Source of the DNA: Gammaproteobacteria bacterium
Lineage (GTDB): Bacteria; Pseudomonadota; Gammaproteobacteria; UBA4575
Length of the DNA: 64,000 nt
Assembly: GCA_965243395.1 (NCBI GenBank)
Contig: CBDEUS010000002.1
Location: 736,001 to 800,000 of the forward strand
Direction: 5' to 3'
Part shown: positions 2,321 to 4,276 of the stretch, one piece after another
How positions within the stretch are numbered: the first letter of the stretch is position 1
Layout of the letters: each line of letters begins with the position of its first letter
Notes under the pieces: model-generated
Told to the model about the DNA's origin: nothing
Seen by the model: the letters and a program-made list of their open reading frames with translations, nothing else
The model's database searches: none
Made by a program: the position numbers and the translations under genes

Positions 2321-2959
2321 CTAAGTATCCAGCATCTTAACGGGCAGTGTTTTAGCCTCATTGATCATTGATTCTAGTGAATTTCTATCAGGTATTTCTT
2401 TTACCCGATTTTGCTCTGCATTAGAGTCAACTAATATTTTATGTAACGCGTTAGCCTCTAGTTGACCTAAATCTTGAGCTGAATCAATGCCGGCATATAC
2501 CATCAGTTCAGCAAACTGACCTTCAATACCATCCACGCGCATAAGATCTGACATACTGGCCCACTTGCGAATAACGAAATCTTCTATGCCAATATGATTT
2601 GCAATCTCTATACGACCATCCATATTGCTACATTTATCTAGTAGTTCTTGTGTTGTACTAATGCCACTATCACGCAGCTTTGCGCCGTAACTCTTACCGA
2701 TACCTTCTACCTCTTCTACCTCATAACTGGTTTGTCGGGCTTTCGCTATAGTATCTTTCGCTATGTCTTCAGTAGGTGGTTTACTTATTTCTTTAATTTG
2801 ATTTGAATGATTCTGCTCATCAAGCTTATTGCTACTGTCTGCCTCCAACTCATCGAGTCTTTTTTGGCTAGAGCATTTAGCAAGCCAATAACCAATAACT
2901 GCTCCTAATAACGTTGCCAGTAGCAAGCATAGCCACATTTGTGTAATTAAGTAGTTCAT
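2321..2959 (-). CDS. Membrane-anchored DUF4332 (helix-hairpin-helix) protein
   Basis: N-terminal TM; VEEVEGIG...GISTTQELL and DLMRVDGI...FAELM motifs. Confidence 0.8.
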   Translation of the reverse strand: MNYLITQMWLCLLLATLLGAVIGYWLAKCSSQKRLDELEADSSNKLDEQNHSNQIKEISKPPTEDIAKDTIAKARQTSYEVEEVEGIGKSYGAKLRDSGISTTQELLDKCSNMDGRIEIANHIGIEDFVIRKWASMSDLMRVDGIEGQFAELMVYAGIDSAQDLGQLEANALHKILVDSNAEQNRVKEIPDRNSLESMINEAKTLPVKMLDT

Positions 2960-2984: not shown

Positions 2985-3356
2985 CTATTCTTCTATTTTT
3001 TCCATGCCTTGATCATTATCTATCGGCAATGGTTCTAGTTCAGGGGGTTGAATTTTTTCTTCGTTGAGTTTCGGATTAGCAATAATTAATTGATTTTTCA
3101 CAGCACGTACTCCATCAACTTGTTGTACAGTTTCTTTAGCACTTTTTTTTGCCTCTATAGTGTCAACTTCACCTATTAAGGTAATGTCACGGCCGTCTGT
3201 TACAATAGTTATATCATCCAGGTTTTGTTCCAAAAGTGCTGCATGCGCTCGTGTATCAATATCGTTTTGAATGACAGGAACGTGCTGATAAATACAAAAA
3301 TAACCGAGAATGCCTAATAACAATAACCCAAACAAAAGAATAAAAGGTTTTTTCAT
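2985..3356 (-). CDS. Membrane-anchored BON-domain protein
   Basis: TM followed by DGRDITLIGEV...VDGVRAVKNQL BON signature. Confidence 0.85.
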   Translation of the reverse strand: MKKPFILLFGLLLLGILGYFCIYQHVPVIQNDIDTRAHAALLEQNLDDITIVTDGRDITLIGEVDTIEAKKSAKETVQQVDGVRAVKNQLIIANPKLNEEKIQPPELEPLPIDNDQGMEKIEE

Positions 3357-3533
3357 TCGAATTCTCGATTACCCAGTTAATAATATTGAATTGCAATGAT
3401 ACTTAGATATTTTCACTGAAAACATCTTTGTAGTTGAATTATTCAGGTAAAAACAGGCTAACGTATCTGTTGCTTGTTTTCAATAAATAAATATTGCCCG
3501 TATTAAATATATAATTTTATTTCTAGTATGCAC

Positions 3534-3758
3534 TTAAGAAACATAATTATATTGGTATGAACGAAGAGTAGCTTCTCCAAAATATACTTTTGTAAATATA
3601 ATTTGGGGAAGCCACTCTTTTTTCATTTTTACCTTTTCTAAACGTCGTTTAGACTTGTTGCTTTTACGATGCACACCACCCTTTCTAAGCAGTGGATGAT
3701 TATGTAAAAGATTTCTTTGCCGCGTAAATTTAACTGCCAGTTTAGTCTTGTCAGGCAT
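3534..3758 (-). CDS. Small basic protein, candidate ArfA-like alternative ribosome-rescue factor (74 aa)
   Basis: AAGGAG SD upstream of ATG at 3758 (track start 3782 is unlikely); core RNLLHNHPLLRKGGVHRKSNKSKRR; more hydrophobic tail encoded across an mRNA hairpin. Confidence 0.6.
   Translation of the reverse strand: MPDKTKLAVKFTRQRNLLHNHPLLRKGGVHRKSNKSKRRLEKVKMKKEWLPQIIFTKVYFGEATLRSYQYNYVS
3564..3619 (-). other. 26-bp mRNA hairpin inside the CDS (candidate RNase III site)
   Basis: AAGAGUGGCUUCCCCAAAUUAUAUUU-ACAA-AAGUAUAUUUUGGAGAAGCUACUCUU; 24 of 26 positions pair, including 2 G-U. Confidence 0.75.
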
Positions 3759-3793
3759 TACTATTCTCCTTATTTGTTTCAATTAACTAATGT

Positions 3794-4024
3794 TCAAGCG
3801 GCTTCTTTTAACAGTGTGCCATCCTGAATCGCTTGGCGAATATAATCCATAAAATACAGCGAATTTTTTTCAGCAACTAGCACCTCGTCACGCATTGTGT
3901 TTAGAGGTACTGGAAAGCTGTACATCATTTCACTATAAGGAACAGTCACAGCATAATACGCTATCCCATTTTGATAACGTATGAACTTAGCTTTGTTGTT
4001 AATGCTTATATCATTTGTATTCAT
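3794..4024 (-). CDS. Small hypothetical protein with FPVP motif, C-terminal EAA
   Basis: Purine-rich SD region; aligns by eye with 4049-4276. Confidence 0.8.
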   Translation of the reverse strand: MNTNDISINNKAKFIRYQNGIAYYAVTVPYSEMMYSFPVPLNTMRDEVLVAEKNSLYFMDYIRQAIQDGTLLKEAA

Positions 4025-4048: not shown

Positions 4049-4276
4049 TTAAGCGGCTTCAGTTTTATCCATTTTCTCATCCAGTTTTTGGGCATGAGCT
4101 TTGATATATGGATAAAATCGATTTACACGGTCTTCATTTAGAAATACCGACTGACCTGAACCTTTAATAGGTACAGGAAACTTAAAACCACTCTCTGTGC
4201 GGTACCATAGTTTTCCTGATAGGAAAAACATGAAGCGCACGCTTTCATTGTTTTCCAATATTTGATCAAGCTTCAT
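4049..4276 (-). CDS. Small hypothetical protein with FPVP motif, C-terminal EAA
   Basis: AAGGAG SD; GKLWYRTESGFKFPVPI; paralog of 3794-4024. Confidence 0.85.
   Translation of the reverse strand: MKLDQILENNESVRFMFFLSGKLWYRTESGFKFPVPIKGSGQSVFLNEDRVNRFYPYIKAHAQKLDEKMDKTEAA

Follow-up and report, generated by a model that had tools for sequence, protein, structure and literature searches.

The minus strand of the window (the whole stretch of 64,000 nucleotides analyzed here) encodes at positions 3534–3758 a small basic protein, and its mRNA carries a long hairpin where conservation of the coding sequence ends. Judged by profile searches, the protein belongs to a large and widespread family of Gammaproteobacteria that has no name, and the gene is located directly behind rtcB in many lineages. 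Because the gene has the design of arfA and brfA, we read its product as a back-up ribosome-rescue factor that is gated by tmRNA and forms a new family; this appears to be the best explanation as a whole, and we assign an even chance to it. Whether a bacterium can live without trans-translation depends on back-up ribosome rescue, and the literature on the known factors indicates that further ones may await discovery (10.1101/465609; PMC8012679).

The elements of the locus are as follows.

3534–3758, minus strand: 74-codon ORF (P0001) for the small basic protein, with the ATG at 3758 and the stop codon TAA at 3534–3536.
3766–3770, minus strand: Shine–Dalgarno-like AGGAG, 7 nt 5' of the ATG, as read from the sequence.
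3612–3716, minus strand: conserved core, codons 15–49 (RNLLHNHPLLRKGGVHRKSNKSKRRLEKVKMKKEW), from alignments A1, A2, and A4.
3537–3602, minus strand: nonconserved tail of the ORF, codons 53–74 (IIFTKVYFGEATLRSYQYNYVS), from pairwise identity and from variable lengths and stops.
3564–3619, minus strand: core of the mRNA hairpin, 24 pairs with a 4-nt loop at 3590–3593, corresponding to CDS nt 140–195 and codons 47–65 (RNAfold).
3557–3626, minus strand: extended inverted repeat with 33-nt arms that are 82% complementary (repeat search and fold).

The ORF could also start further upstream, at a TTG (3782), but this start lacks a ribosome-binding site. Residues 1–52 of the 74-residue protein include 17 Lys or Arg, three His, and three Asp or Glu residues, compared with two Lys or Arg residues in the 22-residue tail. 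The initial annotation had described a small protein with a very basic N-terminal part and a more hydrophobic tail, a 24/26-bp hairpin over codons 47–65, and the absence of a U-tract or terminator behind it, and every element of this observation was confirmed.

RNAfold of 3534–3640 on the minus strand gave a core helix of 12 + 5 + 7 = 24 pairs across 26 positions. The minimum free energy was −36.1 kcal/mol, compared with −13.2 ± 2.9 kcal/mol in 200 dinucleotide shuffles (z = −7.8), none of which folded as stably as the native region. The repeat search located the two arms at 3557–3589 and 3594–3626 with the 4-nt loop between them, and the outer pairs of this extended repeat are formed by the A-run of the Lys codons and a U-rich 3' flank. 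The flank on the 3' side of the core stem (CGUUCAUACC) is mildly U-rich and contains no U run, and a consensus scan called no terminator at the hairpin on either strand; for these two reasons, a clear U-tract is considered to be absent. No Rfam family reached its gathering score within the 64-kb window. On the plus strand, a T-run trails the stem, but no plus-strand gene ends nearby. The Lys codons on the opposite strand account for this T-run, and the excess of G·U over A·C pairs described below puts the helix on the sense strand, which ruled out a plus-strand terminator. Another inverted repeat, which is AU-rich (3509–3552, 16-nt arms, 88% complementary), extends across the annotated stop codon.

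A word-index search yielded 35 homologs of 53–94 amino acids, which their sources, where they give a name, call "hypothetical protein." When the profile of the 39-residue core was searched exhaustively, 605 clusters matched at E ≤ 1e-3, 92 of them at E ≤ 1e-10. The gap-free core motif is RN.LH.HPLL.KGG.H.K..K..R...K...KKEW, with R15, N16, H19, H21, P22, L23, L24, K26, G27, G28, H30, K32, K35, R38, K47, and W49 invariant or nearly so, and the tails beyond the motif vary in sequence and length. The mean pairwise identity along the protein was as follows.

Residues 15–49: 0.76.
Residues 50–56: 0.46.
Residues 57–66: 0.27.
Residues 67–74: 0.03.

The family was present in 19 of the 201 genomes of a family-level sample of the class and in 3 of the 201 genomes of a phylum-level sample. 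The 43 loci found on genome contigs derive nearly all from MAGs, labeled Gammaproteobacteria, Thiotrichales, Chromatiales, Candidatus Thiodiazotropha, Competibacteraceae, Kangiellaceae, and Methylococcales. The 74-residue protein had no match in Pfam, NCBIfam, PHROGs, or PADLOC. No Pfam family was common to 146 representatives of the family, among which 21 Pfam families were matched once each with E values of 0.005–0.1. The family profile matched no PDB chain at E ≤ 10 in a library that contains six ArfA sequences. The ESM Atlas returned unnamed clusters only, and the nearest named lead was DUF7230 with a score of 0.85, which is below evidence level. At the level of titles and beginnings of abstracts, no literature on the family was found; the supplementary lists of PMC6514570 may name it.

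The hairpin was compared across 44 loci (the window and the 43 genome loci), each anchored on the codon of Trp49, which was set by protein homology alone. The main hairpin starts at −24 to +1 nt from this codon in 42 of the 44 loci, the exceptions being L018 and L043. It ends at +40 to +75 and has 14–38 pairs. When the anchored 66-nt segment was ranked for stability among all 186–378 such segments of its own locus on both strands, it was matched or beaten by at most three of them in 29 loci and was in about the top 5% in 38 loci; the rank test failed at six (L006, L018, L034, L035, L039, and L043). The stems of different clades are wholly different in sequence and form the same helix, as in those beginning with GAGUGGCUUCCCCAAAAUAUAUU, GGCGUGGUUUUCUCUGAG, and GAGUGGGAUUACCCGAGCCGG.

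Covariation was analyzed with RNAalifold on a MAFFT alignment built without structure. The consensus contained 19 pairs, with compensatory changes in 17. Paired cells accounted for 88.8%, compared with 45–56% when the partners were slid by 1–3 columns, and cells changed on both sides numbered 178, compared with 29–73 in the slid controls. None of 500 shuffles attained any of the five covariation measures. Since G·U or U·G cells outnumber A·C or C·A cells in the helix (87 versus 19), selection acts on the helix in the sense RNA. These comparisons leave little doubt that the helix is maintained by selection in the sense RNA, where the conserved coding part ends. The initial annotation had named covarying hairpins with nonconserved tails as the feature to look for in homologs, and homologs without a hairpin as evidence to the contrary. 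The covarying pairs are indeed accompanied by tails of 0.03–0.27 identity, and the anchored hairpin is present in all but two loci.

The position of the first in-frame stop codon relative to the hairpin varies among the 44 loci.

Beyond the hairpin, by 4–172 nt: 28 loci.
In the hairpin loop: 8 loci.
In the 3' arm: 5 loci.
In the 5' arm: 3 loci.

Because the stop is found variously beyond the hairpin, in its loop, and in its arms, the 3' arm is kept whether it is coding or not; the helix is tied to the last conserved codons and not to the stop. The tails of homologs P0017, P0023, and P0029 contain YILENLF, YISENLF, and YFLENLF, respectively, and those of others contain VYFGESF. The YILENLF-type tails are probably frameshifted readings of the same 3' arm, as judged from the peptides rather than from their DNA. 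Distant members with the RNPVARSPLLRKGG.H core and acidic tails were found in 18 other family-level genomes. One of these loci (L154) ends with its contig, and the hairpin begins before the stop in 14 of the 17 evaluable loci. In L145, L148, L153, and L156, a GC stem with a U-run is located inside the ORF, as in the brfA design, and in L151, L152, and L158, the stop precedes or meets the hairpin. Where the stop is in the loop or the 5' arm, or comes first, a terminator alone leaves a normal stop, so that gating either is not universal or needs cleavage of the 5' arm. The layout that would make the message stop-less by design is that of most of the family, not of all. As in arfA and brfA, the hairpin or terminator is inside the ORF, 5' of the stop and at the end of the conserved part, and the C-terminal tail is unconserved (identity of 0.76 in the core compared with 0.27 and 0.03). 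The regulatory reading is strongly supported by this comparison of loci.

In 13 of the 44 loci, the small gene is preceded by a same-strand ORF of 399–464 residues, and the distance from the end of this ORF to the Trp codon is 171–201 nt in 12 loci and 461 nt in L029. The one that was tested is RtcB (PF01139, E = 1e-129), and the other 12 cluster with it by BLASTP. Full-length RtcB is encoded directly upstream in 4 of the 18 class-sample genomes, which belong to different families (L145, L148, L149, and L158), and a 52-residue RtcB piece is found upstream of the small gene in a fifth (L156). In the source genome, rtcB is ~600 kb away from the small gene. The two genes are not adjacent there or in the close clade, and no second copy of the small gene was found behind the rtcB of the source genome. 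The rtcB linkage is a new observation here and recalls the PrfH–RtcB rescue-and-repair pair. Just upstream of rtcB in the source genome is a 55-residue basic ORF (L140:2741–2908, minus strand) with a NDPCVCGSGRRF stretch, which we take to be a SEC-C-type motif. In the contig of L145 (G135 contig C39), ArfB (C39:1179–1586), RtcB, and the family gene (C39:5953–6054) are encoded within 5 kb on one strand.

We propose a mechanism based on the gene layout and the analogy with the known factors. The gene would encode a strongly basic protein of ~50 residues, and its mRNA would be built to lose the stop codon. RNase III would cleave the hairpin that starts at K47-E48-W49, or, in some relatives, the hairpin would serve as an intrinsic terminator, and tail codons 53–74 would mostly never be translated. 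While trans-translation is working, tmRNA–SmpB would tag the product for degradation, and the truncated protein would accumulate when tmRNA is saturated or damaged. By analogy with ArfA and BrfA, its basic segment may then enter the vacant mRNA channel of a stalled ribosome and assist a release factor in freeing the peptide. The position of rtcB directly upstream in many lineages suggests a coupling of this rescue to the repair of damaged RNA. The initial annotation had proposed a rescue factor with the same regulatory logic as ArfA, and the regulatory part of this proposal agrees with the layout seen across the family (a position-conserved covarying hairpin, variable tails, and a moving stop). 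That the hairpin yields a stop-less mRNA gated by tmRNA is, on balance, probable. Whether the product is a release factor-dependent rescue factor, as the design, the composition, and the rtcB context suggest, is nearly an even call, if anything slightly below it.

The source genome (100% complete) encodes tmRNA with the tag ANDDNYALAA, SmpB, RNase III, RF1, and RF2. RF1 and RF2 are its sole genes with an RF-1 domain, and ArfB is therefore absent, as is ArfA. ArfB and the family show no complementarity in the sampled genomes. ArfB is carried by 8 of the 19 family-positive genomes, which is the background rate, given that 84 of the 182 others carry it (these 84 include G039 and G141, which are flagged unpublished). 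ArfA was found in 2 of the 201 sampled genomes, neither of which has the family, and is too rare to test. The phyletic pattern gives the rescue reading no support. A predicted complex of residues 1–55 (A1) with the RF2 of the source genome (A6) had a score of 0.00, obtained without control runs and counted neither way.

According to PMC8012679, arfA has 72 codons and includes a stem-loop at which the transcript is terminated or cut by RNase III, the tail of full-length ArfA is hydrophobic and unstable, and both arfA and brfA are repressed by trans-translation. The present gene resembles arfA (PF03889; E. coli YhdL) in the length of the ORF (~72–74 codons), the strongly basic N-terminal ~50 residues, the hydrophobic and unconserved tail, the position of the in-ORF hairpin (nt 153–197 in E. 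coli arfA when folded and nt 140–195 here), and the gammaproteobacterial host with tmRNA, SmpB, RF2, and RNase III. In contrast, the proteins have no sequence or profile similarity. The Pfam ArfA model (cut-off of 25.5 bits) gave 89.5 bits with E. coli ArfA, taken from the K-12 record, as the positive control. It found nothing in the 74-residue protein at E ≤ 1, nothing in the whole of the 100%-complete source genome at E ≤ 10, and nothing among the 146 family members at E ≤ 0.1. A BLASTP search with ArfA as the query did not match the 74-residue protein. The ArfA alignment (A3) has eight rows, mostly of Enterobacteriaceae (Neff of 1.75), and the profile is shallow because the word-index search and the genome scan gave almost only Enterobacteriaceae. 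With this shallow profile, hhalign of the family alignments A2 and A4 gave a probability of 0.1–0.2% over 4–5 columns, pairing only HPLLR with DPLFR. KGKGSY, which is invariant in the eight-row ArfA alignment, is absent from A1, A2, and A4, where KGG.H.K stands instead, and the family motif RN.LH.HPLL.KGG.H.K..K..R replaces it. To our knowledge, frequent rtcB linkage has not been described for arfA. The weak likeness to ArfA mentioned in the initial annotation thus holds at the motif level (HPLLR/DPLFR) and not at the profile level, and of its two alternatives, divergent or independently evolved, the latter fits better. The common size, charge, and hairpin position, the HPLLR/DPLFR likeness, and the occurrence of the family in Gammaproteobacteria, as reported for ArfA (PMC8012679), would be expected if the protein belonged to the ArfA family and had diverged very strongly. 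However, the Pfam model and BLASTP were silent, the shallow-profile alignment covered 4–5 columns, and the invariant KGKGSY is missing, and we consider such membership very unlikely.

Three other known systems were compared with the family. As described in PMC8012679, brfA has 72 codons with a rho-independent terminator before the stop, and BrfA (Bacillus subtilis YqkK) shares this in-ORF terminator layout with the distant members L145, L148, L153, and L156. It differs in its Gram-positive lineage, and the hairpin described here has no clear U-tract. A BrfA–ribosome structure has been deposited; no PDB chain matches the family profile, and BrfA is set beside the family by gene layout only. ArfT of Francisella is presented as a 40-residue protein with a KKGGSTNKK stretch in 10.1101/465609 and as a member of a broad stress-protein family in PMC6514570. 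The family protein is likewise small and basic and has a K-G-G basic stretch (RKGGVHRKSNKSK), but ArfT is described in the former source as not regulated like ArfA, whereas the present family has the internal hairpin. In hhalign, the family and an ArfT-like ORF (L133:2195–2326) gave a probability of 0.25%, with only KGG aligned. The profile comparison with ArfA and ArfT, proposed in the initial annotation as a check, therefore detected no similarity (hhalign probabilities of 0.1–0.25%). The ArfT-like ORF (44 residues, plus strand) is from a Francisella endosymbiont and has a KKGGSTNKK-type motif; it weakly matches Pfam LEA_5 (E = 0.008), which fits the published view of a broad stress-protein family. 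The PrfH–RtcB pair is presented in PMC6514570 as ribosome rescue coupled to RNA repair, and the likeness to PrfH–RtcB2 is that a rescue-type gene adjoins the RNA ligase gene rtcB (PMC6514570, PMC9304027). PrfH is a release factor homolog with its own hydrolase domain, whereas the family protein is a basic peptide of ~50 residues with no RF domain, and rtcB and the small gene are unlinked in the source genome. By its sequence, the protein cannot be assigned to any of the named families of rescue factors.

The non-stop gating could also serve a protein of another kind. One candidate is an accessory of RtcB in RNA repair, as opposed to a recruiter of release factors; such a basic peptide might bind RNA or ribosomes and guide or protect them once they are damaged. 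The presence of rtcB directly upstream in 13 of the 44 loci and 4 of the 18 class-sample genomes agrees with this explanation, as do the lack of similarity to known rescue factors in the comparisons with PDB, ArfA, and the ArfT-like ORF and the free co-occurrence of the family with ArfB. However, the gene is not beside rtcB in the source genome or in its close clade, where up to 20 loci have another gene order, and the sole gene class with a built-in non-stop mRNA described in PMC8012679 is that of the release factor-dependent ArfA and BrfA. An RtcB accessory is thus considered unlikely. The hairpin could instead be an ordinary 3'-end element, such as a terminator, an RNase processing site, or a stabilizer, through which the ORF reads by accident; the protein would then have another role, for example, as a KGG/ArfT-like stress-induced ribosome-associated peptide, and would not be gated by tmRNA. 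Such an element would suit the 11 of 44 loci with the stop in the loop or the 5' arm, the 3 of 17 distant members with the stop before the hairpin, and the relatives with U-runs after the stem (L024, L030, and L031). The suggested role is in line with the K-G-G motif common to the protein and ArfT (KKGGSTNKK; 10.1101/465609) and with the report of ArfT in a broad stress-protein family (PMC6514570). Nevertheless, the hairpin ends 4–172 nt before the stop in 28 of the 44 loci, and termination or cleavage there necessarily gives a stop-less message. The helix keeps its position relative to the last conserved codons and not to the stop, and neither Pfam KGG nor any other family was matched by more than one of the 146 members at E ≤ 0.1. 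On this evidence, a mere 3'-end element is improbable. A chance ORF combined with a chance inverted repeat has only the small size of the gene in its favor, and it was refuted by the 605 homologous clusters and the covariation; the conservation across GC contents with different codons and the z value of −7.8 also speak against it, and its probability is negligible.

If the gene does encode a tmRNA-gated back-up rescue factor, release factor-dependent rescue would extend to many uncultured marine and sediment Gammaproteobacteria, and the switch in which a stop-less mRNA senses tmRNA capacity would be one that evolves repeatedly. The rtcB linkage would tie the rescue of stalled ribosomes to RNA repair. 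It is a tentative but real possibility, somewhat short of an even chance, that this is a further, independently evolved rescue family made only from stop-less mRNA and wired to RtcB in many lineages, as a peptide counterpart of PrfH–RtcB. In that case, the non-stop switch would have at least three separate origins.

In the close clade (the window and up to 20 loci), the genes are arranged on one strand in the order of 157-residue protein, 104-residue protein, 75-residue protein, 76-residue protein, the hairpin gene, BON-domain protein, and DUF4332 protein. The 76- and 75-residue proteins directly upstream of the hairpin gene (3794–4024 and 4049–4276, respectively, both minus strand) are encoded by paralogous genes. 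They match phrog_20427 of unknown function (E = 1e-4 and 1e-13, respectively) and keep their position in 12 and 20 related loci, respectively. Downstream on the same strand are the BON-domain protein (2985–3356, minus strand) and the DUF4332 protein (2321–2959, minus strand; 212 residues), both of which are found there in 17 loci. The BON-domain protein has 123 residues here and 245–282 residues in most relatives.
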